DNA of 64,000 bases, taken from NCBI GenBank assembly GCA_963662655.2, contig CAXXTU010000002.1, forward strand, positions 1,312,001 to 1,376,000, written 5' to 3'. The position numbers were made by a program, and so were the translations under genes. Shown here one piece after another: positions 2,477-62,107 of the stretch. This stretch comes from Candidatus Cloacimonadales bacterium. Lineage in GTDB: Bacteria > Cloacimonadota > Cloacimonadia > Cloacimonadales > JAIOQZ01. The first letter of the stretch is position 1. Each line of letters starts with the position of its first letter. Below the pieces are notes generated by a model. It searched no databases, was not told where the DNA came from, and worked only from the letters and a program-made list of their open reading frames with translations.

Positions 2477-2477
2477 A

Positions 2478-2933: not shown

Positions 2934-3438
2934 GAAGCAACTTGCTTACGCAAAGCAACTGCGATCCAATATCATGGCGATATCCAAGACGCAGCCTCCG
3001 TGGAACCAATACGATATCCACGACCTGATGTCAGATTGGGGCTTTGGCAGTTCGCTGCGAGCTCTCTCGATCGACGATTTGCACGAACTCAAGGAACTGC
3101 TCTCAGGGCAATACAAGCCGCATTATACGCCCCTGATGAAAGAGTTCATGAACTATGCACAGAAGACGGATACAGGATTGAAAGCCAGCTCCAGCCAAGT
3201 GAACTATATCTGCATTCTGGCAGGCGGTTACAGTTGGTATAGTAGAATGCGCAGATCGAAGTGGGATGAGAAGTTCCGAGACTGGCTGAAGAAATACGCT
3301 AAGACGGATAATCCCGTGTTTATAACGCCTGATAAGGCAAGGAAGACGATCTACATGCTCGAACGCGAGTTATGGACTACATTTGGCGATTTCGCATTCA
3401 CCCAGATTACAGGCAAACAATATCAAGGAAAGAGATAA
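2914..3438 (+). CDS. GemA/Mu gp16-like regulatory protein (start may be 2926)
   Basis: Position in Mu-like operon; 'GSSLRALSIDDLHEL' and 'ITPDKARKTIYMLE' resemble the GemA family. Confidence 0.45.
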   Translation: MAYAMTKKQLAYAKQLRSNIMAISKTQPPWNQYDIHDLMSDWGFGSSLRALSIDDLHELKELLSGQYKPHYTPLMKEFMNYAQKTDTGLKASSSQVNYICILAGGYSWYSRMRRSKWDEKFRDWLKKYAKTDNPVFITPDKARKTIYMLERELWTTFGDFAFTQITGKQYQGKR

Positions 3439-3450
3439 GGAGATCAAGGC

Positions 3451-3657
3451 ATGTGCAAACTATTTCGAGAAGATCGAGGGTACTCACCTGTTGAAATCGC
3501 AGAAAGGCTTCCCTGTGGCAAGAAAACAGTCTATCGAATGATAAACAATGTCGAAGACCCTCTTCCAGCATACAGATTGAATGGAATGCTACGGGTTCTC
3601 GGCAAAGACCTGAATGTCTATATGGAAAATCATAGAGTGGAGCCCGAGAATGAGTAG
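3451..3657 (+). CDS. Excisionase-like HTH (HTH_17/MerR-type) DNA-binding protein
   Basis: YSPVEIAERL..KKTVYRMI..LPAYRLNGMLRV; SD AAGGAG upstream. Confidence 0.75.
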   Translation: MCKLFREDRGYSPVEIAERLPCGKKTVYRMINNVEDPLPAYRLNGMLRVLGKDLNVYMENHRVEPENE

Positions 3658-4102
3658 TATCAAGAACAAGCTGAACCTGGAGACAATGCGAGATCTCGCT
3701 TACACCATGTATATTGCAGGTGTCCCGATAGACACGATCGCAGCTTCATTCAAGCGTTCCACCAGGACAATTCACGGCTGGCGAAAAAAGTATTCCTGGG
3801 ACACGGACATCGAGGACATGCGAGTGATCGACAAAAAGATCCAATTCGCAGCCAAGAAAGCCCTTCTTCGAACGCTCGAGGAGTATGAGAAGAACCCGCG
3901 AGATGTCGATCTCAAGCTACTTGTGAACCAACTGAGAGAAAACACAAAGCAGGCTGATCCGAAGCAGTATGTCGAAGAGACCTTGAAAAAGTACGTCAGC
4001 ATGACGGTGAAGTTCTTTATTGTCAAAGGTCTGGACGATCTCAGACAGGGATTCCAGCAGAACCTTCACGAGATATCCGAGTACATCGCGGAGAATCTGT
4101 GA
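3650..4102 (+). CDS. Putative terminase small subunit (N-terminal HTH, gpP/DUF1804-like)
   Basis: AYTMYIAG..IAASFKRSTRTIHGWRKKYSWD; directly upstream of terL with TGATG overlap. Confidence 0.65.
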   Translation: MSSIKNKLNLETMRDLAYTMYIAGVPIDTIAASFKRSTRTIHGWRKKYSWDTDIEDMRVIDKKIQFAAKKALLRTLEEYEKNPRDVDLKLLVNQLRENTKQADPKQYVEETLKKYVSMTVKFFIVKGLDDLRQGFQQNLHEISEYIAENL

Positions 4103-4570
4103 TGTATAAGTTCACGAAAGGCTTCAGGAATTACCTCGATGAGATCGCTTCTCTGACTCCCACCATCGAGCCGTTTGTTGACGACTCTCCTGCGAAAAAG
4201 AGTAAGCGAATCAAGCGCGTAACCGGTGAGGGTTGGAAGGCATTCAAAGAGTTCTCTGAGAGCTATTTCCCACACATCTTCAGGCTGAGTTTCTGCGATG
4301 ACCACGAGGAAATGTTCAATCTCATCGAACAACACACCGGGCTGATGGCAATCACAGGCTTTCGAGGATTTGGGAAAACTGTTTTAATGGGTGTTGTTTA
4401 CCCGATCTGGAAGGTCATCAAGGGCGAGCGATATGTTATCAATGTTGCGGCTGATATCGATCTCGCAAAGGAACGCTCTGAGTTCATGCTTTCCGAGCTG
4501 ACGAACAATCGGCGTCTGCTGGCGGACTTCCCTGATCTCGAACCAGATGGAACAGATGAAGAGAACTTCT
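4102..4570 (+). pseudogene. Terminase large subunit, N-terminal fragment truncated by ISL3
   Basis: F..SYFPH and Walker A GFRGFGKT of Mu gp28-like TerL; frame enters the IS inverted repeat after about 156 codons; no Walker B or nuclease domain follows. Confidence 0.8.
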
Positions 4571-5917
4571 GGCACTGTTGCATATTAAGTGGGTGAATGG
4601 GTATTCAGATATCCGCAACATTGCAGAACCTTCAATCTGAAGTATGAGAAGTCCTTGTATCCATACGCTCTCTTTATAATGGTTCGAATGACGTTGTTAA
4701 CCGCTTCTGCCTTGGCATTCGTGATTCTATGCTTGAACCAGTTCAACACAATATGCAATCTCTTCATAATCGTTCTTGCAAGTGCCTTCAGTGGCTCGAA
4801 GACGGTTTTCTGAATAACTCTGCACCACTCTTCAATCATCGGCTTCGCTTCTTCTTGCGTAATATCGTCTTCGAAAATCGATAGTAAATCTTCTTTGAGC
4901 AAATAGGCTTCGTAAAGGGGATGATTTAGCGTCTCCAGTTTCTTGAGTCGGGCTTGATGGTTTTCTTTGTGATTGTGTTTTCTGGTCAAAACCAACCACC
5001 GGTCGTGTTTCTTGCTCTGACGCAACTTGTCAGATTCAAAATCTCTCTGAAGTTCTCGTCGTACTTCTTCCACTTTCCTGTTGACCAGGCGGCTGAAATG
5101 GAAACGATCAAATACGATCATATCGGCACTCCAACACTCGGAAACAGCGCCGATATATGAACCACTGAAATCCATTGTTACGGTATCAATCCAGCGGAGT
5201 CGTCGTTCGTATTTTCGAAACAACTCCTTCGCACTTTCTTTCGATTTGCCCATTGTCAGGTCGATCACACGCCCGTCCTCATGGTTTGTGATAACCGTTG
5301 CATACTTATGCCTTCGCTTATAACCAATCTCGTCAATTGCAATCTGATCGACATTCGGAACTCGTCCTCTATAACCCTTTTCCAACTTGGATAACTCAAT
5401 TTTGTCGATTCGATAAATCGTACTCCGATCCACACCGAATATCCGTGCTACAGAAGCATTGTCTGAACGAAGCGTGAACTGGAGAACCTTATTGCCGAAG
5501 TCTTTAGAGTGTCGATTGAGACCCTCGGCAATATCCTGTTGTTCAGTTTTCACTCCACACTGAGCGCAGTTGATCCGGCGAAGCGTCAGCACAAGTACTA
5601 CGGGACGACAGGATATGGATGCATGAAGAATTTTGCGGACTCGATGATCATAAACTGTTCCCACAATACCGCATGTAGGACAACGTGGCTCATCTTCCTT
5701 TCGAACATGGACTTCAATGCATGGATAAGTTTGATACGTACCTTCGATTATCTGGTCGGCAGAATAACCTTGCAAAGCCAACAACGTTTTACAGACTTGT
5801 TTTCTGAGAGGATCATTCATCTCTATCTCCTTGTTGTGGTGATTAGGAGATTGTACGAGATCGGGTGATTCCTCTCAATCTTTTTTTCGACTTACCCACT
5901 AAGTTTGCAACAGTCCC
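4571..5917 (-). mobile_element. ISL3-family insertion sequence
   Basis: 24-bp terminal inverted repeats 4571-4594 (GGCACTGTTGCATATTAAGTGGGT) and 5894-5917 (revcomp GGGACTGTTGCAAACTTAGTGGGT), 20/24 identical, around a single transposase; flanks GAACTTCT and ATAATATA are not duplicated. Confidence 0.92.
4585..5820 (-). CDS. ISL3-family transposase
   Basis: Zinc finger CPTCG..CAQC, IAIDE, TMD, FDRFH, TNAKAEAVNNVI..IKRAYGYKDF. Confidence 0.95.
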   Translation of the reverse strand: MNDPLRKQVCKTLLALQGYSADQIIEGTYQTYPCIEVHVRKEDEPRCPTCGIVGTVYDHRVRKILHASISCRPVVLVLTLRRINCAQCGVKTEQQDIAEGLNRHSKDFGNKVLQFTLRSDNASVARIFGVDRSTIYRIDKIELSKLEKGYRGRVPNVDQIAIDEIGYKRRHKYATVITNHEDGRVIDLTMGKSKESAKELFRKYERRLRWIDTVTMDFSGSYIGAVSECWSADMIVFDRFHFSRLVNRKVEEVRRELQRDFESDKLRQSKKHDRWLVLTRKHNHKENHQARLKKLETLNHPLYEAYLLKEDLLSIFEDDITQEEAKPMIEEWCRVIQKTVFEPLKALARTIMKRLHIVLNWFKHRITNAKAEAVNNVIRTIIKRAYGYKDFSYFRLKVLQCCGYLNTHSPT

Positions 5918-12132: not shown

Positions 12133-13428
12133 TCACTTCTCCGGTAGCATTATTTCAATGGTCGTTCCTTCGCCCACGGTGCTTTCGAGCACCCTGATGC
12201 GACCTTTATGATAGTCTTCGACAATGCGCTTGGCGAGGCTCAATCCAAGTCCCCAGCCTCGACTTTTCGATGTGATTCCAGGCTCGAAAATCTTGGAGTA
12301 CTTCGATTTGGGAATACCGATTCCCTCGTCGCGAACCTGGATGTATGTGTTTCCGTTTTTGCTTGTGGCGGTCAGAATGATGTTGCCGCCCTTGTTCTTC
12401 ATGGCGTCGATGCTGTTTCTCACCAGATTCTCGATTGTCCACCGAATCAAGTCGGGATCGACGTTGATGATGATATCGTCAATTTTACTTATAAGATGGA
12501 TTTCGATCTCGTTATCCAGGTTGGGAAGCCTTGTATTGAAGTACTCGATGGTCTCTTCGAGGATTTTATTGATTCCGCAAGGCTTGAGCTTCACCACCGA
12601 ACCGACTTTCCCAAAGCGATTTGCGACCTTCTGAAGATGAGCCACATCCGCCTTCATGTGATCGATCATCTCGATCATGCTCACGTCTTCGCAACTGGAC
12701 TCGATGCGCATTTTCAGGAGATCGAGCCACGCGAGCATGGACGATATCGGGGTCCCGAACTGGTGGGCTGTTTCCTTGGCAAGGCCGATCCAGAGCTTGT
12801 CCTTCTCGCTCTTCTTCACAAGAAACACGCCGTGGAGACCGAATATGACAAACACGAGCACCAGCGCCATCTCGAACACCGGCATATAGCGCAACTGCTT
12901 CATGGAGAACGGCTCGCTGTAATAAACATAGCCGAAGACGCTTGTATCGGGAAAACTATCCGGTGGAGCTTTGGCAAGCGGAATTGCGTAAAGGCTATCT
13001 GTCGAGGTGAACTGAAGCGCTATTTTGTTGGCGCTGTGCATTCCCTTGAGCTCTTCGCGCAGCATCTGTTGCTTCTTGGTATCCAGATAGCGATATGGGA
13101 GATTGTCGACTTCGATATTTTTCCAGGCGATCGGCTCGTTATTGCTGTCCGTCACGATGATCTTGTAGTCGATATTCTGAAAGACATGTTCCTGGATGTA
13201 CTCCACCAGGCGATCTTTCCAAATCTCGCTTTCCCAGTCGCTATCCGTGAGTAGGGTAAAATATCTCGCGAAGAGGTTGGGGACAATGTGAGCGTCTTTC
13301 CTGGCGTGGAAAATGAGTCGATTGGAGTATATCACGAAAAAGAACATGATCAGCGCGCTGCCGAAAATGAAATAGAGTTTTAGCAGCAGGTTTCGATCAC
13401 TTCCTTTTAACAGCTTCCCAAACTTCAT
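12133..13428 (-). CDS. Membrane sensor histidine kinase
   Basis: Two TM segments, AKETAHQFGTP H-box, ENLVRNS, DEGIGI, GWGLGL; start at MKFGKLL. Confidence 0.9.
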   Translation of the reverse strand: MKFGKLLKGSDRNLLLKLYFIFGSALIMFFFVIYSNRLIFHARKDAHIVPNLFARYFTLLTDSDWESEIWKDRLVEYIQEHVFQNIDYKIIVTDSNNEPIAWKNIEVDNLPYRYLDTKKQQMLREELKGMHSANKIALQFTSTDSLYAIPLAKAPPDSFPDTSVFGYVYYSEPFSMKQLRYMPVFEMALVLVFVIFGLHGVFLVKKSEKDKLWIGLAKETAHQFGTPISSMLAWLDLLKMRIESSCEDVSMIEMIDHMKADVAHLQKVANRFGKVGSVVKLKPCGINKILEETIEYFNTRLPNLDNEIEIHLISKIDDIIINVDPDLIRWTIENLVRNSIDAMKNKGGNIILTATSKNGNTYIQVRDEGIGIPKSKYSKIFEPGITSKSRGWGLGLSLAKRIVEDYHKGRIRVLESTVGEGTTIEIMLPEK

Positions 13429-14167
13429 CGAGCTGCTCCAGCGTTTGTTCGTGCATGTCAAGCCCGGCGTTTGCAAATTCCTTTTCCACCTGCCGGAACC
13501 GATTCTCGAATTTTCGTATCGCACCCCGCAAGGCTGCCTCGCTATCGATGTGCAGTTTACGGGCAAGATTCACCACGGTGAAGAGGATATCGCCGATTTC
13601 GTCCTCGATCCGCTCTTGCGGCTCATTTTCCCAGGCCTCTTCGAACTCGGCGAACTCTTCTTTCATCTTCTCGAAGACAGGCTCGGGAGATGGCCAGTCG
13701 AAGCCTACGGATGCCGCTTTCTCCTGCATTCGCTGAGCGACGATGAGTCCGGGCATGGAATGCGGGATGCCATCGATTGCCGAGCGATCCCGTTTCTCTT
13801 TTTCGCGACGTTTGAGCCGCTCCCAGTTCATTTTAACTTCGTCCGCGTCCGTCGCTTTCGCGTCGGAGAAGATATGCGGGTGGCGTATGATCAGCTTTTT
13901 GCAGATGCGGTTGAGAACATCCGCGCCAGTGAAGTCGCCGTTCTCCTCTGCGATGCGAATCTGCATCACAACATGCAGCATGATATCGCCGAGTTCTTCG
14001 CAAAGGTGCGGTTGGTCGTCATGCTCGATTGCCTCGATCGCCTCGTAGAGTTCCTCGATGAAGTTCGGAACCAGCGATCGGGAGGTCTGCTTCAAATCCC
14101 AGGGACAGCCGTTCTCCGGATCTCTCAACCTTGCAACAACTTGTATCAATTCATCAAATTCTTTCAT
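13397..14167 (-). CDS. mazG: Nucleoside triphosphate pyrophosphohydrolase MazG
   Basis: LRDPENGCPWD, EELYE, EELGD, RHPHIF, EDEIGDILF. Confidence 0.95.
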   Translation of the reverse strand: MKEFDELIQVVARLRDPENGCPWDLKQTSRSLVPNFIEELYEAIEAIEHDDQPHLCEELGDIMLHVVMQIRIAEENGDFTGADVLNRICKKLIIRHPHIFSDAKATDADEVKMNWERLKRREKEKRDRSAIDGIPHSMPGLIVAQRMQEKAASVGFDWPSPEPVFEKMKEEFAEFEEAWENEPQERIEDEIGDILFTVVNLARKLHIDSEAALRGAIRKFENRFRQVEKEFANAGLDMHEQTLEQLDEVWEAVKRK

Positions 14168-14274
14168 GGATTCCCTTTCATTCGGTTCATAATATCGGTA
14201 AGAAAGACAGCGGGGAAATGTTTGTCAATGAAAACAAGAATTTCGCGTGCACCATCTTCCATAGCTCACCGACC

Positions 14275-14452
14275 GCGCGGCGGGGCGACGCCGGAAGTCC
14301 ATACGCACCAAAGTAATGGCCCAAACAAAGTCTGTCCGCCGCGACAAAGCCAGCGCTAGTGATCCCTCTCAGGGACTTCCGGGAACGCTTATGAGCTGCA
14401 ACGCAGCTCATAAGCGTTCTGTGTGCGAAGCACACGCGCCGCCCCGCCGCGC
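14275..14452 (+). repeat. Structured intergenic element, copy A (four-way junction)
   Basis: P1 14275-14291/14436-14452; P2 14292-14300/14373-14381; P3 14383-14399/14403-14419; P4 GTGTGC-GAA-GCACAC 14421-14435. Confidence 0.8.
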
Positions 14453-14558
14453 TGAGCTGGTTGAGCAACTCGAACCTGCCGGATTGTTTTCATGGACAAG
14501 CATTTCTCGACAAAAAGAATCGCTCGCAGAATATTCGTTCTGTTATGGAGACCAGGAC

Positions 14559-15779
14559 ATGAGCGAGATCAAAGACAAGCTGCGCCTTCTCGGCCTGAAG
14601 CTTTCCCCGCAGGAAAAGCCCAAAACGAAGATTAGTCGGTTCCGACTGGACAATGATCTCGTCGGAAAATACATAGATACGCACTCCGGTTCGATCTTCG
14701 TGCGGGAGACGGTGCTTCCGGTCGATTACTCTCATGGCTGGCTCTCCCCCATACGATATCCCAGTGAAATGAAGCTCCTCGCCCAATACGCCAGGCTGCA
14801 CGACCACACATCCATCGAACCCAATCAGGTTGTGTACCTCGACACGGAAACAACCGGCCTTGCCGGCGGAACAGGCACATACGCCTTCATGGTAGGAGTC
14901 GGAAGATTCACGCCAAACGGATTCTTCCTCCGGCAATACATCATGGCGGATCCGACCGAGGAGGTCTTCCTGATCGAAGCGCTGCAAAATGAATTCGATA
15001 CCGCCCAAACAACGGTCTCATACAACGGTAAGGCGTTCGACATCCCGCTACTGGAAAGCCGGTTTATCCTGAACGGTTTTCCCATGCCGTTCGAGGAGAT
15101 GCAACACCTCGATCTGCTGCATCCGGCCCGCAGACTCTGGAGGAACCGCTTCGATTCGTGCCGTCTGAGCGCTCTGGAATACTACGTTCTTGGCATCGTC
15201 CGCTCGGAAGACGACATCCCGGGCTCCATGATACCCCAGATGTATTTCGACTTCCTGCAATCGCGCGATCCCGAGTTCTTCAACGGCATACTGTACCATA
15301 ATCAGGAAGACATCGTAAGCCTGGCGGCATTCCACCAATTGATCGCACAAATCCTCGAAAATCCGGATCAATGCGATGAGAAGATTCTGGATTTCTTTGA
15401 ATTGGGAAAACTATACGAGGATTTACATGAAAACGACCGCGCGAGGGACATGTTCAGAAGGATAATAGAGCCCGATAGCGATGTCAACAAGCGACATTCG
15501 TTCCTGCTCAAACGCATTGGGGACTGGCCGGAGGCGGTAGAAATCTGGCTGCGTGAGTGCGATGCCGGTTGCGATTACGCCATGCTTGAACTCGCGAAGT
15601 ACTACGAGCACCAGCGGAGAGATTTCGAGAAAGCCAGGCACTTCTCGACCCTCCTCACCCGGGCAATCATGGATTCAGGCAAGACATGCAGTAACGAAGA
15701 CCTCGACGCGATAGAAAAACGGCTTCAAAGACTCGATCGCAAGATCAGAGCCGCTGAAGCCGATAAAATTTCAGATTGA
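14559..15779 (+). CDS. YprB/MrfB-like RNase H-fold (DEDD) exonuclease with C-terminal TPR-like repeats
   Basis: YLDTETTGL, SYNGKAFDIP, HLDLLH, YHNQEDI; SD-preceded ATG at 14559 (the longer ORF reads through the repeat element). Confidence 0.85.
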   Translation: MSEIKDKLRLLGLKLSPQEKPKTKISRFRLDNDLVGKYIDTHSGSIFVRETVLPVDYSHGWLSPIRYPSEMKLLAQYARLHDHTSIEPNQVVYLDTETTGLAGGTGTYAFMVGVGRFTPNGFFLRQYIMADPTEEVFLIEALQNEFDTAQTTVSYNGKAFDIPLLESRFILNGFPMPFEEMQHLDLLHPARRLWRNRFDSCRLSALEYYVLGIVRSEDDIPGSMIPQMYFDFLQSRDPEFFNGILYHNQEDIVSLAAFHQLIAQILENPDQCDEKILDFFELGKLYEDLHENDRARDMFRRIIEPDSDVNKRHSFLLKRIGDWPEAVEIWLRECDAGCDYAMLELAKYYEHQRRDFEKARHFSTLLTRAIMDSGKTCSNEDLDAIEKRLQRLDRKIRAAEADKISD

Positions 15780-25172: not shown

Positions 25173-25789
25173 GTACACTCCCTGACATTCATTATTTTGC
25201 AAAAAACTATGCTTACTCTAAAACGATCTCGACATCCTGCTTTATATCGCCGGTTTCCATCAGTGTTTGGCCAACCTTTTTTATCTCGCTATCGTTCTCC
25301 GAGATTTTTCTGGATATCTTTCGCAAGTTAATCGCGTTGTTTCCGTATCCGAATACGATTCAGTCATTTCATCATTTCAAGAACGAATCGCTCAAAGGCA
25401 GATTAACGTCAAGCAAATAAATACCGAAATATTGAACGGCTGCGAGGGCGCAGTATTACATTCAGGATTATACCGGGGTACATTCCGACCGGACTTCCGT
25501 TCTATCGAACAACATGCCGGGAAAATACTTTCGGGCGATGTGCTGGCTCGCGGTTGCACTCTCTATCCTGGATATCGTCGTGCTTGACAATTTTTATGGA
25601 TTAATAAGGTTGACATCCTGCATCTGGCATACGTAATCGTGCAGCTACACAGTTTCTACATCGCTATGTCATGAATCCGTACTCCAAGGATTGTGGAAAT
25701 TGTTCTCCTGAAACGATTTTCCGGTTGTTTATCGATCGGATTTATGGTATTTCCATCGGAAAGTCGTATAATAATTTGCGGAGGTTAAT

Positions 25790-29966: not shown

Positions 29967-30153
29967 TCCGGTTAGTTTCCTGTTAAAACCATCGCCCATC
30001 CCTAACTCCGTTTATTGCTCCAGCAATAACTGAGCAGCCATTCACCCCATTTACTGCGAGTTTATCAACAATTTACAATCCGAATGTAAGAATCTGTGTA
30101 TCGGGATTTGGAACGGTTTTGAGTATTGGAGAATAAATCATAGAGGAAAGGAT

Positions 30154-33010: not shown

Positions 33011-33011
33011 T

Positions 33012-42290: not shown

Positions 42291-43832
42291 ATGTTCGGGA
42301 AAACTTTATCATACGCCATTCAGGGGATCGATGCCGATCTTGTGGCTGTCGAAGCAGATATCAAAGGGGGAATGAGCAAGTTCTCTATAGTCGGGCTTCC
42401 ATCCAATTCCGTCAAGGAGAGCCGTGATCGCGTTTCAGCGGCGATCAAGAACAGCGGATACAAGTTCTTTTCGTACAACTACACGGTCAATCTCGCGCCT
42501 GCCGATCTGCGCAAAGAAGGCGTATCCTTCGATTTACCCGTCGCGGTTGCGATTCTTGCCGCTTCGCATCAAATCAAATCCGAGCATCTTGAAGACACGG
42601 TAATCGTCGGAGAGCTTTCCCTAGATGGAGAAGTACGACCCGTTCGCGGGATCCTCCCCATCGCCATGAGCTGTAAACACGACAAGATAAAGAGGATTAT
42701 CGTGCCCCGTGAGAATGCGGAAGAAGCGGCCATTATCGACGAGCTAGAGGTGTATCCCGTCGATACATTGACCGACACCGTCGACTTTCTGCAGGACTTC
42801 CTCCAGATCGAGCCTGCGAAGGTCGATCGGGAGAAGATATTCTCCAACTTGAACATCAGCATGGTGGACATGTTCGATGTGAAAGGGCAATTCCATGTGA
42901 AGCGAGCTATGGAGATTGCCGCTGCCGGCGGTCACAACCTTCTGATGATTGGCCCTCCCGGATCGGGTAAAACCATGCTCGCGCGTCGCCTACCAACAGT
43001 TTTACCGGATTTGAGTCTCGAAGAAGCGCTTGAGACCACCAAGATTCACTCTGTTGCCGGCCTGATTGCAAACAACGGCAAAGGTGTCATATCGGAGCGA
43101 CCCTACCGCTCGCCGCACCACACGATTAGCGACATCGGCCTGATCGGCGGAGGAAGCTATCCCAAACCGGGCGAAGTATCGCTCGCGCACAACGGAGTGC
43201 TCTTCCTCGATGAGCTACCCGAGTTCAAGAAATCCGTTCTGGAAGTATTGCGTCAGCCGCTCGAAGACGGAGTCGTCAACATCACCCGCGCCACGCAGAG
43301 TCTCTCCTTTCCGGCGGAATTCATGATGGTGGCCTCGATGAACCCATGTCCATGCGGGTACTACGGCAACTCCATCCCGGGGCACACATGCTCATGCCCC
43401 ATGACAAGCATTCAGCGATACCGCTCCCGGATTTCCGGTCCGCTTCTCGATCGCATCGACATCCATATCGAAGTACCAGCGGTCAAATACGAAGAGCTGA
43501 GCTCTCTGCCGACCGGCGAGAAGTCCGACATGATCCGACAGAGAGTTAACAAGGCCCGAAACATACAGTTGAAGCGCTTCGAGGGCACCAGCGTTTTCTG
43601 CAACGCACAGATGAACTCGAAGATGATCCGCAAATATTGCGCGATCGACGATCAGGGAAAATTACTGCTGCGTAAAGCGGTCGACAGGCTGGGACTCTCC
43701 GCCAGGGCGTTCGATCGTATCCTTAAGGTTTCAAGAACCATTGCCGATATGGACGGTTCTGATCATATTAACAGTTCCCACCTCAGCGAAGCTGTCCAAT
43801 ACAGAAGCATGGACAGGAAATTTGTGGAATAA
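42291..43832 (+). CDS. comM: YifB/ComM Mg-chelatase-like AAA ATPase
   Basis: [71 protein letters not shown]. Confidence 0.95.
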
Positions 43833-43843
43833 GCTCCCACCCA

Positions 43844-44046
43844 GCGGCGGGACGGCGTTGAAAACTCATTCGCCCCGCGTTGATTCATGCAACACCGAAT
43901 TCTGAGAACCAATTATGAGGCATGAACCAGCGCGGGGCTTTCCATGAGTTTTCTGGGAACGATTTCCCGTACAACCATAATCCATTTCGTGGTTCATCAA
44001 GCGGGAAATCGTTTCGTGCGCGCAGCGCACAACGCCGTCCCGCCGC
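43844..44046 (+). repeat. Structured intergenic element, copy B (four-way junction)
   Basis: P1 43844-43859/44031-44046 (16 bp perfect); P2 43860-43869/43944-43953; P3 43956-43969/44002-44015; P4 GTGCGC-GCA-GCGCAC 44016-44030. Confidence 0.8.
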
Positions 44047-44140
44047 GGCAGCCGGTTGAGCAGACTCGAAGTTTCCGCTTCCCGAAGAAAAAGGTCGCAA
44101 GTAATACTTGCGACCTGAAGAAAGTGAGAGTTTTTGCAGC

Positions 44141-47100
44141 TTAGGGCTGGTCACTCACGACGATTTTGTAGAACAGCTTCGAATTAGCTCCGGGATCAAC
44201 CTGCAAGCTGCTGTCCTGCGTCGTGTACAGATAGGTTGTCTCGTCGCACGGGAAGTCGGGAGACTGCCCGGCATAGACCTTGTACCACACGCCGTTGAGC
44301 TCGCTGTAGCTGTTGCCTTCGAATGTTCCATTCGTCACAGCCGACCATTCCAGATTCACGTCGGAACCGTCCCTGCTGATCGTAACCATTCGAACGGCAT
44401 CCGGAGCGATGTTATCCACGGAGTAGCCGCTCATGGTGTCCGACGACCACAGACCTTCCGCCCGATGATGCATCACCATGAACGTTGCCTCGTTCGTGCC
44501 CGAAGCCGATGAATCGGCGAGCGTCGGAGCGTTGAAGATGTAGTAGTCGTTCATGATTGCCGGGACGGAAGCGATGTATGCCCAGTAGTAGTCATCGTAA
44601 CGAAGATAGAGTAGGTCTCTCGATTCCTCAGACGCAGCAATCAGCGTCTCGGGATTATCGAACACGACATAGCCGTTTGACCTAACAACTTCGTCCATGC
44701 GCCATACGCTGTAGTAAGCGCTGAAATCGTACGTGCTGTCAAAAGAGCTTCCTTTCCAAAGTAGCTGAACCTGGTGTCCCTGATCGCCGGGGATATCTTT
44801 GACATGCGCCATCGCCGGCGCCGATTGGTCGAAATAGGTGTATCCGATATCCGCTCTCGTACCATCCAGATCATTTTCAGTCAAAGGATTACCGTTATCA
44901 ATCAACGGCGACTTCGTCTCGTCTTCATCTGGATACGATGCCCAGGTTGGAGCATATGACGAATCCCATAACGGATCTGCATCTATGATGGATTCTTCGT
45001 TCACAGTAATGTTATTACCACTATACGAACCTCCATCGGGCAAAACGCAGTAGAAAACATTGGCCGATGTTGCACCGTTTCCAGCGCTTCGAATTAGTTT
45101 TGTACAGCTATCCCAAAATACCGTATTGTTAATTGAAATGTGAAGGATAGTGCCCACTTCGGGATACGCATATATTTCTGAGTCATAATAGGTAGCGTCA
45201 TTATCCGTTATGGTGCAATTATCGATAAATAACTCATCGTCCAAGCCTAGGAATATGATTGCTCCGGAATCCGAGCTGTTTCTTTCAAGCAAACAATGAT
45301 CGAGATGCAGATACGACCTGCTAGCACAAAAAACACCACCATAATTTACAGCGAAATTGTCGGCAAATCTGCAATCGGTGATAGAGGCCGAAGCTCTAAA
45401 TAATCCGATAGCTCCACCCTGGTGCCCCGACATGTTGTTCGAGAAATTGGAATTCGAGATTGTTACACTGTGGGATTCATTTAGCATAATGGCTGCTCCG
45501 TTTCCATATACAAAATCTTGATTTTGTAAATTCATCTCGGTAAAGCTACACCAATCGAATATACAATTTCCGGAATCATTTCCATCAACAACGACGTGGC
45601 CTGTCTTGATACCGGAGAATGTCGGTCCGAACGTGACAGGACTTTCTCTCGTTCCTTCTGCTTGGATATCGCCCAATACAGTCAGATCCCACTCACCGTT
45701 GAACTGAACGTCCACACCGGGCTCAATTATCAAAGATTGACCTTCAGGCACTGTGACAGGTCCTCCAATCTTGTATGGACTTCCGGCAATATCCCAAACG
45801 CCATATTCTTCACCCATCACATGCATCTCTTGTTCGTAAGCCTTCCAACCAACATCCGTTACCGTGTTATCCGCATCCGGCGAGAACTCCGGATCTCCGC
45901 CATCAATCAGCGGCGATCTGAAGGAATCATGATCCGGATATGAGCTCCATGAAGGGCCATAATCAATATCGAACAACGGATCCTTATTGAAGTTGTTCTC
46001 CAGTGTTTCAGCTCCGGTCGCACCGTGAATGGTTCCTCCCCCCTGAATATCGCAGTACTTTACCGTAAGATCCATGATACCCGCGCCTGTACAATAAACA
46101 TAGTACGTTTCGTTATCCCAAAATACGGAGTTGGTGATGCTCAAATCTATCGTACTGCTTGGCATTACAAGGATATCCGCAGAAATGGTCGGAGAATCGT
46201 TATAACTGATTGTGCAATGATCCATCGTGATTTCACCGGCAGATTCAAAACTAAGGGCTCCACCGTAAGACCCTATTCCACCGGCAAACAGGCAGTGATC
46301 GATTGAAACCGTTGAATTGTTTGTAGCAATCGACCCGCCATACATTGCAGAATTATTCTCAAACCGGCAGTTTGAAACCGTTCCGATTGAATTCATGAAA
46401 TAGAGTGCACCACCACGGTCACCGGCAGTATTGTTATAGAAAACACAATCGGTAAAATCCACTCCCATCATACTTTGCACACTAACGGCAGCGCCCTGAT
46501 TCCCATCACCCAAGCCATCGGGTGTTTCCAGGTTGAGGAAATAGCAATTGCTGAAAGTCGAGGTTACACCACTGTTGCTCGTTATAAAAATATGCCCAAC
46601 TTCGCTGCCAACAGTAGCAGGAGCGAAAGTTATAGGGTCATTCGACGTTCCATTGGCGAAAATCTCGCCTTGTGCTTCAATATTGTACTGACCATGATAA
46701 TAAACCGTTACGCCTTGCTCTATCGTTAGTGATTCCCCGGCTGGGATCAATAAGTTTTCCGTAACATTAACCGTCTGCCCGGCCGTCCATAAACCGTAAA
46801 CCATTGAAACATCTGCGTCAAGAAGCACATCATCAACACTGAAATAGTTGATATAATAAGAGTCGCCACTAAAGAAGAACCTGAATTGGAAATTCTGGGT
46901 ATCAACCAGAGAATTATCGATATCAAACGACATCTCAGTCGGTGCAATATGTGCGGAAGGAGACACGCTCCAGATCGTCGTCCACGTCTCGTCCGAACCG
47001 TAAATCATCAATCCAACAGTGTATTGGCCAATCCCATCGAAATGACTTACGTTGTATCTGAATGACAGCGTAATATCACGATAACTCGATGTATTGAAGC

Positions 47101-47338
47101 CCGGGCTTGTGAAATACTGGTCACCGGTTGTTTCCGGATTGTATGCAAACCTCGCTTCCGGAGCAGTTCCTCCGGCAAAGCTCGAGGCTCCCTGAACCCA
47201 GTTATCTCCATTGTTCGCTCCGCTTCTGGCCCACCCGCTTGGCGGAAACGTCCCCGAAAAATCCTGTACGTGAAGATTGGCTGCGCTTATGTTAACCGCA
47301 ACCAATAACAACAGCAATAAAAAATGATAGGTTTTCAT
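44141..47338 (-). CDS. Secreted protein with duplicated right-handed beta-helix modules and an FN3-like C-terminal domain
   Basis: Signal peptide; GGA[I/L] and FxxN repeats; two modules from LxIExGVxV to SPLIDxGxP..DxG. Confidence 0.75.
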   Translation of the reverse strand: MKTYHFLLLLLLVAVNISAANLHVQDFSGTFPPSGWARSGANNGDNWVQGASSFAGGTAPEARFAYNPETTGDQYFTSPGFNTSSYRDITLSFRYNVSHFDGIGQYTVGLMIYGSDETWTTIWSVSPSAHIAPTEMSFDIDNSLVDTQNFQFRFFFSGDSYYINYFSVDDVLLDADVSMVYGLWTAGQTVNVTENLLIPAGESLTIEQGVTVYYHGQYNIEAQGEIFANGTSNDPITFAPATVGSEVGHIFITSNSGVTSTFSNCYFLNLETPDGLGDGNQGAAVSVQSMMGVDFTDCVFYNNTAGDRGGALYFMNSIGTVSNCRFENNSAMYGGSIATNNSTVSIDHCLFAGGIGSYGGALSFESAGEITMDHCTISYNDSPTISADILVMPSSTIDLSITNSVFWDNETYYVYCTGAGIMDLTVKYCDIQGGGTIHGATGAETLENNFNKDPLFDIDYGPSWSSYPDHDSFRSPLIDGGDPEFSPDADNTVTDVGWKAYEQEMHVMGEEYGVWDIAGSPYKIGGPVTVPEGQSLIIEPGVDVQFNGEWDLTVLGDIQAEGTRESPVTFGPTFSGIKTGHVVVDGNDSGNCIFDWCSFTEMNLQNQDFVYGNGAAIMLNESHSVTISNSNFSNNMSGHQGGAIGLFRASASITDCRFADNFAVNYGGVFCASRSYLHLDHCLLERNSSDSGAIIFLGLDDELFIDNCTITDNDATYYDSEIYAYPEVGTILHISINNTVFWDSCTKLIRSAGNGATSANVFYCVLPDGGSYSGNNITVNEESIIDADPLWDSSYAPTWASYPDEDETKSPLIDNGNPLTENDLDGTRADIGYTYFDQSAPAMAHVKDIPGDQGHQVQLLWKGSSFDSTYDFSAYYSVWRMDEVVRSNGYVVFDNPETLIAASEESRDLLYLRYDDYYWAYIASVPAIMNDYYIFNAPTLADSSASGTNEATFMVMHHRAEGLWSSDTMSGYSVDNIAPDAVRMVTISRDGSDVNLEWSAVTNGTFEGNSYSELNGVWYKVYAGQSPDFPCDETTYLYTTQDSSLQVDPGANSKLFYKIVVSDQP

Positions 47339-56432: not shown

Positions 56433-56539
56433 TCTTCGAATTTCTTGTCGCGATGCGATCGAATTTCCAATTTACTTGACAAATCGATTCCATGAATTTG
56501 AGTATAATAAAAACACACAGAATAATCAAAAAGGATTGT

Positions 56540-58093
56540 ATGATGACAAAACGTTTATTGATTTTCCTCATTCTTCTGCTTCCGTTATTCATTGCAGCTC
56601 AGGAGATTGACTCCACGTCCGTTAGCGCTACCGCGAGCACGGGCTTTGGATTCGGCGGAGCATTCGGTAGCATGACGATGAACGGTAAAACCTACGCGCA
56701 AATCCGGCTGATGCCGGAACTGGTTTTCGGAAAATTCGGTATCGGCCTGGACGCGGATATTCTGATCGATGAAGAAGGAAACATCCGTGAAGAAGACTGG
56801 GACGAGTGGGAAGACTACGTGAACAAGGTCTATTATATCCGCTACGGACAGCGTGGCGATAAGTTCTATGGCAGAATCGGTGGCTTCAAGAGCTATACGC
56901 TCGGCCATGGACTCATCATGAGCAATTACACGAACATGCTCCTCTACCCCGAGTATCGCCAGATCGGTCTGCAACTCGGTGGAACGTACCCCGGCGAACT
57001 CTTCGAGCTCGAAGTATTCACTTCAAACGTGCTGGAGAACGACATCCTCGCCGGCAGGGTTGCCGTAAAACCTTTAAGCAAGATGCCGCTTCCGATTCTC
57101 AATAACTTGAAGATCGGCGTCTCGGCAGTTACTGATCGCGATCAGTACAAAGGCTTGCTGGATGACGACGACGACAATTACGCCAATGAGTTCGACGATT
57201 TCCCATACGACGAAGACAAGCACAATCTTGTGGACGAACCGGATGAAGTGGCATACCAGATGGAAATCTATCAGGAAATCCACGGCGACACGCTGGGATT
57301 CCATCAGTGGTTCTGGGACGATTCCCAGGCTATCGAGAGCCGTAGAAATCGATCCCTTGACGATTTCGAGGAAGACGATGTGACTGTGTTCGGCCTCGAT
57401 TACGAACTTCCGCTCATCGAGCTTCCAAAGTTCTATCTTTCAAACTACGGTGAATACGCTCAGATCGTCGATCACGAGTGGGGCTTCATTTTCCCGGGTT
57501 TCTACATGAAATTCCTCATCTTCAACATGAACCTCGAGTATCGTTACTATCACGAGGACTTCGAGCCTTCATTCTTCGACAACCTGTACGATGAGAACCG
57601 CGTAAGCGTTTATACGATCCAGGATACGGTGAATGGTGCAACGGAGGTCACTGCAGTTACGAAGGAAGAGACGCTTTCCCGTAATCCTGAAATGCAGGGC
57701 TGGTATGGCAGCATTACCGCCAATCTCTTCAATACAATCTATCTCACGGTTGCGTACGAGGATATGTACACGGATGTGAAAGACGAAGATGCAGACAACT
57801 GGAACACGCACAACAAGTCGATCTGGGGTAAACTGTCCCTTGCTCAGACCGTGATTCCGCAACTGAAGGAACTCTCCGTGGCGTATCAGCAAACCCGCGT
57901 TGAAGAGGTGCTGAAGGAGTGGAAAACACCTTCCACGCTGATAACCGGGACAGCCGTTTATGGTATGGCCGCCAACACGAATCTCGTGGTGAAATACCAG
58001 GAGCGTTATGTGGATTACGATGGAAACGGTGAGATCAAGGGCGAAGACGAGACCATCAAGACGATGGCTTTCGGCGTTGAGTTCCGTTTCTAA
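56540..58093 (+). CDS. Putative outer-membrane beta-barrel protein with an acidic Ca-binding-like loop
   Basis: Signal peptide, amphipathic strands, DDDDDNYANEFDDFP, terminal Phe (GVEFRF). Confidence 0.6.
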   Translation: MMTKRLLIFLILLLPLFIAAQEIDSTSVSATASTGFGFGGAFGSMTMNGKTYAQIRLMPELVFGKFGIGLDADILIDEEGNIREEDWDEWEDYVNKVYYIRYGQRGDKFYGRIGGFKSYTLGHGLIMSNYTNMLLYPEYRQIGLQLGGTYPGELFELEVFTSNVLENDILAGRVAVKPLSKMPLPILNNLKIGVSAVTDRDQYKGLLDDDDDNYANEFDDFPYDEDKHNLVDEPDEVAYQMEIYQEIHGDTLGFHQWFWDDSQAIESRRNRSLDDFEEDDVTVFGLDYELPLIELPKFYLSNYGEYAQIVDHEWGFIFPGFYMKFLIFNMNLEYRYYHEDFEPSFFDNLYDENRVSVYTIQDTVNGATEVTAVTKEETLSRNPEMQGWYGSITANLFNTIYLTVAYEDMYTDVKDEDADNWNTHNKSIWGKLSLAQTVIPQLKELSVAYQQTRVEEVLKEWKTPSTLITGTAVYGMAANTNLVVKYQERYVDYDGNGEIKGEDETIKTMAFGVEFRF

Positions 58094-58168: not shown

Positions 58169-58333
58169 GCGCGGCGCGGCGTGGAATCCCCCACATCCCA
58201 ACAGGATATTCACATTCATTCTCTTTAGCAGACGTAGAGTATCCTGTTGGGATTCCGGGAGGGATTCCTGGTAAGTTGCGAATGCACCGCATTCGCAACT
58301 TACCGTGTGCGAGGCACACACGCCGCGCCGTGC
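58169..58333 (+). repeat. Structured intergenic element, copy C (four-way junction)
   Basis: P1 58169-58182/58320-58333; P2 58183-58190/58261-58268; P3 58270-58285/58289-58304; P4 GTGTGC-GAG-GCACAC 58305-58319. Confidence 0.8.
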
Positions 58334-58516
58334 TTGTGTTCCAGCTCAATTCATCGAGGAGATTTCTCGTTTTCGAGGTTGAATTATTCAAGTTTGAACG
58401 GCGGACAAATCGAGAAAATTGAGGAATCATAAAAAAAAAGCTTTACAAGCTACATACGGGATATAGTGTAATAGGTTTTGCGTATTGATACGTATAATAA
58501 TCCAATGGAGGTTACG

Positions 58517-61500
58517 ATGATAAAGAAAATGATCCCTCTTTTATGTCTGATGAGTCTGGTCATCGGCTTGAACGCCTTTACGCCGATCATTGACGGAACG
58601 AAGGATGCGGAGTGGGGCGAAACACCCACTGAAGGTACCTTTACAACAATGCAGCCAACGAACTTCAATCTTGAAGGCGGCTGCTACGTTACCGATGACT
58701 CAAACTATATCTACTTCGGTATTCCAACCGATGTCGACCCGTGGGGTGACGGTAATTCGATCCACTTCCATCTTTCGATCGACATTCGCAATACTGCCGC
58801 AGGCGGTACCGGCGACGCGTGGGGAAGCCAGGTACATTATGGACAAACCTATCTTCCCGACTTCGATATTATTTGCCAGTGGAACGACACCGCTCCGACT
58901 CCCGGTTACACCGGTTTCATGACTTGGAACGGCACCGGCTGGGATCAAGTTCAGCTCGATCCGGCCAACATCGCCGGTGGCGGCGGCGCGTTCACAGAAA
59001 TCGCCATCCCCAGAAGCATGCTCGACAACATCGACTTGAACGATGATATCAACGTATCGCTCTGGCAGCGCCCGGCCTGGAACAAGAACAACGCCAACGC
59101 GTGCTGCCCCGCAGACGCGTCTTTCCCGTCCGATTATGGCGACGGAGCAGGTGGTACTCAAACCACCCAGTTTGCATACACCGTATCTACCCAGCTTGCC
59201 GATACGACGGCTCCGCGCATGTCTTCGGCCGTGCAGACCGCTCCAGACATGGTTCGCGTTACGTTCAACGAACCAATGGGTAGCGGCGCACAGGCAGCCG
59301 GAAACTATTCTATCGACAACGGCGCGACCATCAACAACGTATCCATGATCTCATCGAGCGTCTACGATCTTACCGTCGGCGGACTGGTGGCAGGTACGGA
59401 GTACGAACTGACAGCAAGCTCGGCGATCATGGACGCATCGGGCAATCCGATCGATCCTTCTTACAACAGCGATACATTCACAGCCAGCGCTTACACCGAT
59501 GTGACCTTCACAATCAACGACAACAGCCGCATTTACGAAGACATCAACGTTAAAGGCAGCTTCGACGAGTGGACGCTTCATCAGGCTTACGACGATGGAA
59601 CAAACGGCGACCCTACCGCGGGTGACCACTCCTGGACCTGCGTTGTGACAAACGTAGCCGAAGGTAGCTGGGAATGGGGCGCGATCGAAGACGACGGTTC
59701 CGAATACGGAATCTGGCTCATCGATGGCCCGAACCTTCAATTTGCCATAGACAACACCGGCGCGATCACGGGCGATACATCCTACGACATCGCCGGCGGC
59801 ATCGCACAGGATGTGGAAGTCACTTTCCGCGTAAACATCGGTGGTCTCGAGGTCGATAATATCTCGATCCAGGGAAGCGTTCTTCCGCTCAACTGGACGC
59901 CGGGAAGCAATCTCCTGACAGACGTAGATAACGATAAAGTCTATGAAACAACGATTACTTTTCCCACCGGAAGCAATTTCGACGTCGACTACAAATTCAC
60001 GCGTGAAATTGCCTCCGAGCGCGAATGGCTTTGGGAAGATGTCGAAAACCGCACGTTCACCATAGACGACACGCAATCGAGCATGACGCTCGATACGGTC
60101 TACTGGAACAATCAGCAGGTTAACGAGCTGACCGCAGTATCATTCCTGGACAACACCGCATCGGAGTACACCAACTTCGCTAACGGCGATGAATTGGGAG
60201 CCGGCAGCAGCATCGATATCGAAGCGATCACCGAAGGCGCTGACCTGAACGGCAACTCCGGATTCGGTCTCACGCTTCGCTACCGTGTAAACCAGGGCCT
60301 GGAACAGTCCAAAGCATTCACCTGGCAGACCAACACCGATACAACTTCCTTCTGGCGCGTATCGATCCCTTCGGAAGACCTCGATGAAGGCGACGAAGTT
60401 CTCTTCCGTATTACCGGTACCGACTACAATGGCCCGGTCGTGGAAGACAACAACGGCGGTCAGAACTATAGCGTATCCATCGGTACATCGGGAACCCAGC
60501 AGGATGTGGATGTCACGTTCACATTCAATCTGGGAAGCTCCGACGCAACGCAGGTTGGTATCGTCGGAACCGTTCAGCCGCTTGGAGAATCGGGCGCTGA
60601 CAACCTGATGGTTGACGACAACGGCGACAAGATTTTCACCAAGACCGTTACATTCCCAGCAGGAAGCCCCTACTCGGTTTCATACAACTACGCCCGTTAC
60701 ATGGCTGAAGAACGCTCATGGCAAATCGAGCCGAGCATCTCCAGAAGCTTCAACCTGGACGACGTGACCGGCACGATGGACCTGGGCGTCGAATACTGGG
60801 AGGGCGTCGCAGTTTCCGAGCTGACAGATGTATTCTTCCTCGACAGCGGTACTTCGGTTTATTCGAACTTCGTTAGCGGCGGCTCGGTCGAAGTCGACAA
60901 CAACATCCAGATCGAAGCGCAGGTCGCAGGCGAGGATGTCAACGCGAACTCGAACTTCCAGGTCACCCTTTACTACCATGTGAACTCCGGCGAGCTTCAG
61001 TCCAAATCATTCGGCTGGGCGAGCAACTATGAAGGAAACTCGTGGTGGCACGTGATGCTCGAGAACGGTGTCGACGTGAGCAACGGCGATGACGTCAGCT
61101 TCTACATCGAAGCATCCGATTACAACGGTCCGGTCATAACCGACAACAATGAAGGCAGCTCCTACACGGTCAGCGTACTCGGAGAAACCACTTCGCAGGA
61201 TGTTACCGTGACTTTCTCCATCAACATTGGCGCGTTGAACGCAGACAGCATCTCGGTTCAGGGTAGCGTCGCTCCTCTCGACTGGTTTGGCGGTTCGATG
61301 CCGATGAACGACGATGACGGCGACTGCACCTACACCGTTGACGTGTTCTTCCCTGCGGGATCTCCGTTCACCGTACAATACAAGTTTACCCGCCTGACGA
61401 CCTCCCTCCGCGAATGGGCGTGGGAATACGTCGGCAACCGCAGCTTCCAGATCGACGACTCCGAATCGACACAGGTTCTGGAACTCGACTACTGGAACCT

Positions 61501-62107
61501 CAACGAAGTCCACGAGTTGACCAGCGTTGCCTTCGCGGACAGCGCAGCATCCGATTACACCAACTTCGTCAGCGGCGATGTCCTCGCAGAAGGTAGCGAC
61601 GTCCTGATCGAAACCAAGACTGGTGGCCTCGATCCGAACTACAACTCCGGCTTCGAAGTGACCCTGCACTACACCGTCAATGGCGGCGCAGAGCAGTCTG
61701 TCGTCTTCAACTGGCAGGGTAGCGACCCCGAATACAGCTGGTGGCGTATCGGCCTTGAGAACGGCGTAGATATCGTGGATAACGATGTGATCGCTTTCTG
61801 GATTACCGCAACCGATTACAACGGCCCGGAATACACCGACAATAACGGAGGCGCGAATTACACGGTCACCGTGGGTCAGGCAGCTCCGCCGGCTGCGCCG
61901 CAGAACGTGACGATCACCGTGGTCGGAAGCGACGTACAGCTCTCCTGGCAGGCTGTCGCCGGCGCGACGAACTATCGTCTTCAGTCATGCGCTTCACCCG
62001 ACGGAACCTTCACCAATGTGATGATCACACCGAACACCTCGCTTACCATCATAGGTGGCGCGGGTTCAGCGAACATGAAATTCTATCGCGTCAAAGCGAT
62101 TCAATAA
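58517..62107 (+). CDS. Large secreted modular protein with CBM20-like/Ig-like repeats and an FN3-like C-terminal domain
   Basis: Signal peptide; three repeats of about 231 aa starting QDVxVTF..GSVxPLxW..YKF; no catalytic motif recognised. Confidence 0.7.
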   Translation: MIKKMIPLLCLMSLVIGLNAFTPIIDGTKDAEWGETPTEGTFTTMQPTNFNLEGGCYVTDDSNYIYFGIPTDVDPWGDGNSIHFHLSIDIRNTAAGGTGDAWGSQVHYGQTYLPDFDIICQWNDTAPTPGYTGFMTWNGTGWDQVQLDPANIAGGGGAFTEIAIPRSMLDNIDLNDDINVSLWQRPAWNKNNANACCPADASFPSDYGDGAGGTQTTQFAYTVSTQLADTTAPRMSSAVQTAPDMVRVTFNEPMGSGAQAAGNYSIDNGATINNVSMISSSVYDLTVGGLVAGTEYELTASSAIMDASGNPIDPSYNSDTFTASAYTDVTFTINDNSRIYEDINVKGSFDEWTLHQAYDDGTNGDPTAGDHSWTCVVTNVAEGSWEWGAIEDDGSEYGIWLIDGPNLQFAIDNTGAITGDTSYDIAGGIAQDVEVTFRVNIGGLEVDNISIQGSVLPLNWTPGSNLLTDVDNDKVYETTITFPTGSNFDVDYKFTREIASEREWLWEDVENRTFTIDDTQSSMTLDTVYWNNQQVNELTAVSFLDNTASEYTNFANGDELGAGSSIDIEAITEGADLNGNSGFGLTLRYRVNQGLEQSKAFTWQTNTDTTSFWRVSIPSEDLDEGDEVLFRITGTDYNGPVVEDNNGGQNYSVSIGTSGTQQDVDVTFTFNLGSSDATQVGIVGTVQPLGESGADNLMVDDNGDKIFTKTVTFPAGSPYSVSYNYARYMAEERSWQIEPSISRSFNLDDVTGTMDLGVEYWEGVAVSELTDVFFLDSGTSVYSNFVSGGSVEVDNNIQIEAQVAGEDVNANSNFQVTLYYHVNSGELQSKSFGWASNYEGNSWWHVMLENGVDVSNGDDVSFYIEASDYNGPVITDNNEGSSYTVSVLGETTSQDVTVTFSINIGALNADSISVQGSVAPLDWFGGSMPMNDDDGDCTYTVDVFFPAGSPFTVQYKFTRLTTSLREWAWEYVGNRSFQIDDSESTQVLELDYWNLNEVHELTSVAFADSAASDYTNFVSGDVLAEGSDVLIETKTGGLDPNYNSGFEVTLHYTVNGGAEQSVVFNWQGSDPEYSWWRIGLENGVDIVDNDVIAFWITATDYNGPEYTDNNGGANYTVTVGQAAPPAAPQNVTITVVGSDVQLSWQAVAGATNYRLQSCASPDGTFTNVMITPNTSLTIIGGAGSANMKFYRVKAIQ

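Follow-up and report, generated by a model that had tools for sequence, protein, structure and literature searches.

The genome of a Candidatus Cloacimonadales bacterium (two contigs, 3.81 Mb, 99% complete; G000 in what follows) carries 76 complete and three partial copies of a gene-less intergenic element with a predicted four-way-junction fold, called here the 4WJ repeat, of which three congeners (G001, G002 and G003) have one copy each. Its copy number, dispersal, polarity, covarying stems and presence at gene-order breakpoints are observed directly. The explanation that we prefer, and in which our confidence is evenly poised, is that of a dispersed DNA element, 105-203 bp long, which likely acts as single-stranded DNA (ssDNA) and was likely spread by a putative structure-recognising nuclease or transposase, the one-sided cuts of which would leave copies at rearrangement junctions. 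Three copies, A, B and C, are found in the window, that is, the whole stretch of 64,000 nucleotides that was analysed.

REP-like repeats have more than once been the way to a new ssDNA enzyme, as with RAYT and, in 2025, Ssn. A conserved four-way junction for which no partner gene is known suggests a further enzyme or hijacked host junction processing. Furthermore, 76 diverged copies make a natural data set tying gene-order breaks to a defined DNA structure, with which the question of cause or consequence, for small palindromic repeats in bacterial rearrangements, becomes testable.

Anatomy of the 4WJ repeat

Copies A, B and C (Table 1) each fold as a closing stem, P1, bearing three arms, P2 to P4, and the coordinates at which the earlier note had placed their closing stems were exact (14275-14452, 43844-44046 and 58169-58333). 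The z-scores of DNA folding are -9.3, -10.5 and -14.4, respectively, with none of 200 shuffles equally stable. As that note had also seen, P4 has the form GTGYGC-GNN-GCRCAC in the three copies, A and B have a common 3' flank, and the lengths of P2 are similar (92, 94 and 86 nt), a similarity that is lost at the level of the family, where P2 is bimodal (short in 33 copies, long in 43). A mechanical ORF starting at 14316 reads through copy A, the gene caller preferring the downstream start of the RNase_H_2-family gene.

Table 1. Copies A, B and C of the 4WJ repeat in the window, and the features that adjoin them
Feature	Position in window	Strand	Remarks
Copy A, 5' leader	14264..14274	+	about 10 nt, weakly conserved; from flank consensus
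Copy A, P1 5' arm	14275..14290	+	conserved GC-rich core
Copy A, P2	14291..14382	+	basal stem conserved, long interior poorly paired
Copy A, P3	14383..14419	+	perfect hairpin; sequence hypervariable across the family
Copy A, P4	14421..14435	+	6-bp hairpin, GAA loop (GCGNAGC mini-hairpin; motif as in part of PMC13037366)
Copy A, P1 3' arm	14437..14452	+	
Copy A, 3' tail	14453..14474	+	polar, starts TGAG, belongs to the element; from tail profile
Copy B, core	43844..44046	+	
Copy B, P1	43844-43857/44033-44046	+	
Copy B, P2	43860-43953	+	
Copy B, P3	43958-44013	+	
Copy B, P4	44016-44030	+	GCA loop
Copy B, 3' flank	44047..44071	+	distal tail motif common to copy A; proximal flanks may be swapped
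Copy C, core	58169..58333	+	
Copy C, P1	58169-58181/58321-58333	+	
Copy C, P2	58183-58268	+	
Copy C, P3	58270-58304	+	
Copy C, P4	58305-58319	+	GAG loop
Terminator-like hairpin and T run	~58113-58140		upstream of copy C
mazG-family gene	13397..14167	-	left of copy A
RNase_H_2-family gene	14559..15779	+	right of copy A
Mg-chelatase/ComM-like gene	42291..43832	+	left of copy B
1065-aa gene	44141..47338	-	right of copy B; no Pfam hit; distant from comM in 3/3 congeners
533-aa gene	56492..58093	+	left of copy C
1209-aa CBM_20 gene	58478..62107	+	right of copy C

The three copies initially counted belong to a much larger family. A search with a P4 plus P1 pattern retrieved 71 copies in G000, to which profile searches added five complete and three partial ones, a fourth 5'-only match, inside a gene, being left out of the count; a looser form of the pattern gave 71 matches in G000 against none in a 3.8-Mb Markov simulation. 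Each of the 79 parsed copies (76 from G000, three from the congeners) has exactly two helices between P1 and P4 and is predicted to fold as a four-way junction. The tight junction described at first, with 0-2 unpaired bases, holds as a total for 46 of the 76 copies, the remainder having up to eight. Three classes can be recognised: long P2 with long P3 (n=34), short P2 with long P3 (n=33) and long P2 with short P3 (n=9), and the long form of P2 has a recurrent bulge and loop.

Sequence is conserved in the P1 core, the P2 base and P4, and it varies in P3 and in the interior of P2. The recognition by shape proposed earlier would not be a matter of shape alone, as the three conserved stem segments and the polar 3' tail are also kept in sequence. 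P1 forms a terminal inverted repeat of 10-17 bp in most copies, and its arms pair at 14.0 of 15 positions within a copy, as against 11.5 between copies. The whole is polar, in the order leader, P1, P2, P3, P4, tail, the latter being some 25 nt that start with TGAG or TGG after P1. A profile of this tail finds 50 element sites and two weak sites elsewhere, and no vacant target site in the genome, on which ground the reading of the flanks as a pre-existing target was rejected. In 55 of the 76 copies the loop of P4 is a GNA triloop with a closing C-G pair, and in five it is the complement, TNC; GNRA tetraloops are absent from P4.

Copies are scattered: 79 of the 80 listed sites lie outside long called genes, all four classes of orientation relative to the neighbouring genes are represented (22/22/20/15 of 79), there is no replichore bias (40 vs 37), and spacing is Poisson-like (mean 48.6 kb, sd 46.8 kb), the copies being single and no closer than 4 kb to one another. 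A collapsed copy, reduced to P1 arms without interior, and two 3'-half copies, at C2:100900, C2:1165330 and C2:3617689 of G000, are consistent with deletion or exchange within the element.

A second repeat family, of about 125 nt, made of two hairpins and a short linker, is represented in the window at 25647-25772 (+), and has 22 profile matches genome-wide in G000 and four in the searched part of G001. Copy B's P3 resembles the second hairpin of that family, a likeness in sequence that suggests the capture of a module. The proposal that the interiors are captured host DNA or guide sequences was discarded, as this P3 is the exception among interiors that have no convincing match outside elements. 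The window also has phage-like genes at 3-4596 and 28938-41855. A Mu transposase C-terminal domain lies at the left end; the genes for GP7 major capsid and peptidase M15 belong to the phage-like block that ends beside the comM-like gene, the upstream neighbour of which is a different gene in G001 and G003. An ISL3 copy at 4571-5914 is one of about 13 near-identical copies in G000. Far from the window, a non-coding stretch of G000 (C2:~2900680-2900800, minus strand), almost identical in G001, ends in a terminator just upstream of a 4WJ copy; it looks like a conserved RNA gene, possibly 6S.

Association with gene-order breakpoints

Gene order was compared between G000 and 2.4 of the 3.9 Mb of G001, with both orthologues found for 22 of the 79 element junctions. 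Twenty of these 22 are at gene-order breaks, one of them borderline (orthologues 1.1 kb apart, in swapped order), as against 118 of 360 control gaps (p 6e-8), and, with matching for orientation and gap length, two syntenic junctions were seen where 10.8 were expected (p 4e-5). When gene order is considered at the level of blocks, 30 of 33 gaps with a 4WJ repeat are at breaks, compared with 196 of 488 without repeat; the corresponding counts are 8/9 for insertion sequences (IS), 6/15 for the SRM-type repeat of the same genome and 4/6 for the two-hairpin repeat. By these counts the 4WJ repeat behaves like IS and unlike the SRM-type repeat. This concentration at breakpoints is the new feature of the family, the SRM-type repeat of G000 being without such bias.

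We are inclined, if mildly, to think that the element causes the breaks rather than follows them. The main rival, which we regard as rather improbable, makes the element a passenger: a mobile palindromic repeat would have colonised, or survived in, unconstrained spacers that had been made by earlier rearrangements, IS-driven or other. Most breaks, indeed, are free of the element on both sides (217 of 264), repeat-free gaps longer than 700 nt are often breaks (70 of 107, at block level), and the neighbours of four of the six gene ends that adjoin the window copies vary among the congeners, a different one in each. Nor do G002 and G003 polarise the breaks. In six stretches of G001, picked for two element-linked breaks each and tallied by hand, 9 of 12 element-linked adjacencies are kept in G002 or G003, as are 8 of 12 others, a comparison that is uninformative on the direction of change; with those nine kept and three varying among congeners, the borders are not always variable. 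Yet if free spacers were all that mattered, the SRM-type repeat should enjoy them as well, and it stays at background (also at gene level, with 4/13 at breaks). The bias persists in short gaps: of the element gaps below 700 nt, 19 of 21 are breaks, against 55 of 127 matched gaps (p 7.5e-5).

The neighbours of copies A, B and C illustrate the situation, being apart in G001 and G003 and, in G002, on different contigs or far apart. The mazG-family gene and the right-hand neighbour of copy A are non-adjacent in G001 and G003, and in G002 the mazG-family gene is on another contig; the CBM_20 gene on the right of copy C has a different upstream neighbour, common to the three congeners.

Among the broken adjacencies of G001, 47 touch an element, only four having one at both ends (2.5 expected), and a relaxed rule gives six against 3.6. 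This rarity of pairing makes plain recombination between copies unlikely as the main route, and simple reciprocal recombination was set aside because both-end cases are not enriched. The same figures bear on the possibility that the 4WJ repeat is a classical MITE, mobilised by a DDE transposase acting in trans, with homologous recombination between copies shuffling the genome, for which we see little probability. The likeness to MITEs such as Correia, RUP and QMITE, as PMC10969869 portrays them, is considerable, as it comprises a size below about 500 bp, a terminal inverted repeat, an intergenic location, no coding capacity, a stable predicted fold and the need for an enzyme in trans; moreover, copy C and the copy at C2:1966945 have the orientation needed for an inversion between the two. 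The 4WJ repeat is, however, GC-rich and polar, keeps the pairing of its interior without keeping its sequence, has ends unlike those of the two multi-copy IS families of G000, and shows a compatible orientation in only two of the six both-end cases. Nor was a target duplication detected, since direct repeats at the ends are in no excess (6-mers in 15 copies vs 19 in the control, 8-mers in 2 vs 1, of 76); the copies are old, and target duplications of MITEs decay (PMC10969869, in part).

Mobility and distribution

That the 4WJ repeat is a mobile repeat seems to us very likely, because near-identical interiors are found at unrelated loci and in another species. Within G000, unrelated loci have interiors with 91% and 84% identity, the similarity ending at the base of P1; the copy of G002 is 91% identical to one of G000 with unrelated flanks, in genomes the genes of which are about 75-79% identical. 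The genes that flank it in G002, which we take to be FadL-like and orotate-phosphoribosyltransferase-like, are absent from G000 (no clear orthologue; best match 37% over 75 aa). Of the two options that the earlier note had left, a non-autonomous mobile element is the one that fits, with copies dispersed and intergenic. A further pair of G000 (C2:2159048 and C2:2239177), in which a copy, together with 100 nt or more of its 3' flank, recurs in inverted orientation at 97% identity beside ISL3 copies, is a segmental duplication and gives no evidence of the element's own movement.

At the site beside queD, G001 and G003 have a copy and G000 has none, and in G002 the site is about 160 nt shorter. 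The interiors of these two copies are unrelated, but their fold is intact and their outer inverted repeat is longer; the single copy of these genomes is within a long imperfect inverted repeat that reaches the -35-like boxes of two divergent genes. Their persistence at one and the same divergent-promoter site would suit a domesticated DNA signal, read by host proteins (as a primase or replication-restart, nucleoid or recombination site) and derived from one ancestral copy that was amplified in the lineage of G000. GCGNAGC-type hairpins, such as that of P4, do occur at the phage G4 origin, the RSF1010 ssiA site and N4 promoters (PMC13037366, in part). We give this reading a low probability: the site lacks a copy in G000 and, apparently, in G002, the other 148 genomes sampled from the phylum yielded no copy, and neither replichore bias nor any departure from Poisson-like spacing is seen.

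The distribution is narrow. Among 40 relatives, a strict pattern matches only G001 and G002, once each, and a looser one has a single real copy, that of G003, among four matches. With the covariance model, a sample of 151 genomes of the phylum (G002 excluded) yields G000, G001 and G003 only, and nothing in the other 148, 18 candidates being scored per genome. In a viral collection there are no real copies (three pattern matches, at most 12 bits), in metagenomes none of nine matches has the 4WJ fold, and plasmid and phage collections have no copies. A scan of GTDB genomes gave nine matches, two from Cloacimonadales, two from Polyangiales and five due to chance. No close strain offers a clean empty site, the alignment of the relatives being too diverged. 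Contigs of two sequencing runs, which may stem from the source sample, span copies B and C unchanged. Searches of the open-access literature, supplements apart, yielded no description of the 4WJ repeat.

Probably DNA rather than RNA

The stems covary strongly, as had been noticed on three copies. In an alignment of 22 short copies, 81.9% of cells pair, against 66.7% when shuffled and 35-55% when slid, and 32 of 43 pairs have two-sided change; P3, which is imperfectly in register in this alignment, is 66.8% paired. In P1, 133 positions are off consensus, 103 of them mirrored in the opposite arm. Across 12 close, non-independent pairs of copies, 34 pair-restoring double changes stand against 2.4 expected, beside 54 one-sided ones. 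The covariation first described is thus real, while part of it may arise from copying between arms and not from selection. Among the 17 triloops other than GNA, five read TNC, its exact reverse complement (p 0.003), which we infer to be the outcome of loop inversion through template switching; at least one copy has its leader and tail clearly swapped. Covariation, even when strong, is not necessarily a sign of RNA, since flipped loops and few wobble pairs suggest that arms are copied at the level of DNA.

We think it probable that the 4WJ repeat acts as DNA and not as RNA, given the scarcity of G-T pairs, the GCGNAGC mini-hairpin of 55 of the 76 copies and the lack of bias relative to gene orientation. 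Stem positions hold 4,319 Watson-Crick pairs, 57 G-T (1.3%) and 27 A-C, in a counting scheme that favours G-T. GCGNAGC is an unusually stable DNA mini-hairpin, the RNA counterparts of which are much less stable (PMC13037366, in part). The earlier note had used the G-T pairs to choose the plus strand, an argument that these numbers weaken and that is further weakened by both strands folding within about 3 kcal/mol of each other as DNA; a better guide to the strand is the loop of P4, mostly GNA and rarely its complement, TNC.

Its other option, a new non-coding RNA family, fits poorly, with 76 copies in G000 and one in each congener. It is very unlikely that a structured RNA, or retroposed copies of one, was selected here for its RNA structure: the covariation just described, a ratio of G-T to A-C of about 2:1 on one strand, the recurrent bulge and loop of long P2 and two weak promoter-like matches close to copy A, downstream in both cases, speak for such a family, and against it stand the few wobble pairs, a P4 triloop of the DNA type with no GNRA, the mixed orientation to genes and a sole reverse transcriptase that is not linked to the repeat and whose match is interrupted by a stop. 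Rfam has no match at gathering level in the window, in agreement with the initial failure to recognise a known family, and 17 sub-threshold hairpin matches in 18 further sources.

Search for a partner enzyme

It is somewhat more likely than not that a dedicated enzyme moved the 4WJ repeat. Linkage to RAYT/IS200, IS110 or reverse-transcriptase genes had been suggested, and none of these genes is linked to it. G000 has no Y1 (RAYT/HUH) gene, no IS110 transposase (PF02371) and no DUF559 gene; a search for Y2 was silent too, as was its control. Among the relatives, none of 30 Y1 loci carries the 4WJ repeat, nor does any of the eight IS110 loci examined among the 17 of G002 (IS110-family matches are confined to G002 among the four genomes of the genus), while DUF559 and RAYT loci carry other repeats. 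The one reverse transcriptase, six tyrosine-recombinase matches and two GIY-YIG matches of G000 are unlinked to the 4WJ repeat, no small gene or paralogy recurs among its neighbours, and the ends of the two multi-copy IS families do not match it in any meaningful way (1.7 bits at best).

In G001 and G003, a RAYT-like gene with its own GTAG repeats is present between a xer gene and dinB, and in G000 a 4WJ copy follows the xer gene; this RAYT was rejected as partner, its repeats being unrelated to the 4WJ repeat. A GIY-YIG (Ssn-like) gene of G000, at C2:885122, is short, broken and flanked by CGTC-type hairpin repeats, a repeat with 47 motif matches in G000 and 16 in the searched part of G001, matching the Ssn/SRM arrangement described in part of PMC11893778.

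Known systems and the proposed mechanism

The 4WJ repeat works like REP/REPIN, SRM and MITE repeats and differs from each of them in defining features. With REP, BIME and REPIN sequences, as they appear in part of PMC3333891, it shares a gene-less, intergenic, palindromic, multi-copy and polar nature, a presumed action as ssDNA and a short conserved word at the foot of a hairpin. REPs are, in contrast, paired hairpins of 20-40 nt (PMC3333891, in part), where the 4WJ repeat is a single four-way junction; a GTAG foot on the 5' side is found in one of 76 copies on the plus strand and in none on the minus strand (none and one for GGAG), the TGAG/TGG word of the 4WJ repeat is 3' of the stem, and G000 is devoid of Y1 genes, with no RAYT flanked by the 4WJ repeat among the 30 Y1 loci of relatives.

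With SRM/NTS repeats and the Ssn GIY-YIG nucleases (PMC11893778, in part), the common points are a lineage-specific expansion, polarity and a link to recombination, to which recognition of sequence plus structure on ssDNA, a feature of SRM/NTS in the same source, may be added as a probable likeness. SRMs, however, are single hairpins of about 30 nt (PMC11893778, in part) and are not enriched at breakpoints in G000; a CGTC leader is found in 3 of 76 copies of the 4WJ repeat, either strand considered, and the Ssn-like gene of G000 is flanked by another repeat family.

No DEDD transposase of the IS110/bridge-RNA type was found in G000, and cis-regulatory RNAs (riboswitch, leader, terminator) would have a fixed orientation to genes, which the 4WJ repeat does not have. 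Integron attC sites vary in sequence and length and conserve an ssDNA fold that is a substrate of recombination; unlike them, the 4WJ repeat is branched, dispersed singly and in mixed orientation, with no cassette arrays.

The closest precedent for the mechanism that we propose would be the action of RAYT on single-stranded BIMEs, for which cleavage and strand exchange were obtained in vitro with the E. coli system (PMC3333891, in part). A strand of the 4WJ repeat exposed by a replication fork, by transcription or by DNA uptake would snap into a cross, with the GCGNAGC hairpin as its cap. An enzyme provided in trans, acting as RAYT does on REPs or Ssn on SRM hairpins, would then read P1, the P2 base, P4 and the tail, nick the DNA and join the piece elsewhere without target duplication, its gene being by now lost or unrecognised. 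A cut, or a stalled fork, at one end, rejoined to distant DNA, would leave the element with one old and one new neighbour; the fragility of palindromes is reviewed in PMC7999016. As P2 and P3 would need only to pair, template switching from arm to arm could rewrite them, with two-sided changes and flipped loops as its traces. Several facts count against this preferred explanation: no partner enzyme was found, the breaks are unpolarised and most of them are element-free, IS, long repeat-free gaps and the two-hairpin family are also often at breaks, and the border between genes at which G001 and G003 have their single copy is stable.

A similar repeat in Polyangiales

Finally, one Polyangiales genome (G158) has a dispersed repeat of about 300 bp, with near-perfect inverted arms of 85-100 bp and a branched apex. 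A bold extension of the preferred explanation, speculative and on balance doubtful, would place both repeats in an unrecognised class of selfish DNA spanning two phyla, Cloacimonadota and Myxococcota, whose members would be ssDNA mimics of a Holliday junction with a GCGNAGC-capped arm; an undescribed enzyme, or the junction-processing machinery of the host, would cut and rejoin them one side at a time, causing spread, rewriting of arms and active scrambling of gene order. The Polyangiales P4 pattern was not found in 60 relatives, and the sole Y1 gene of the genome is not flanked by its repeat. Scores with the 4WJ model are 14-36 bits, and size and arm length set the Polyangiales repeat apart from the 4WJ repeat, the two being alike in a predicted four-armed fold and a GNA-loop hairpin, the same P4 sequence adjoining the closing stem. 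This repeat has 75 BLAST matches and 13 exact matches to the P4 pattern; at its apex P4 adjoins a small hairpin and an arm that varies, an arrangement that may be drawn as a four-way junction, although minimum-energy folds differ among the 12 copies examined.
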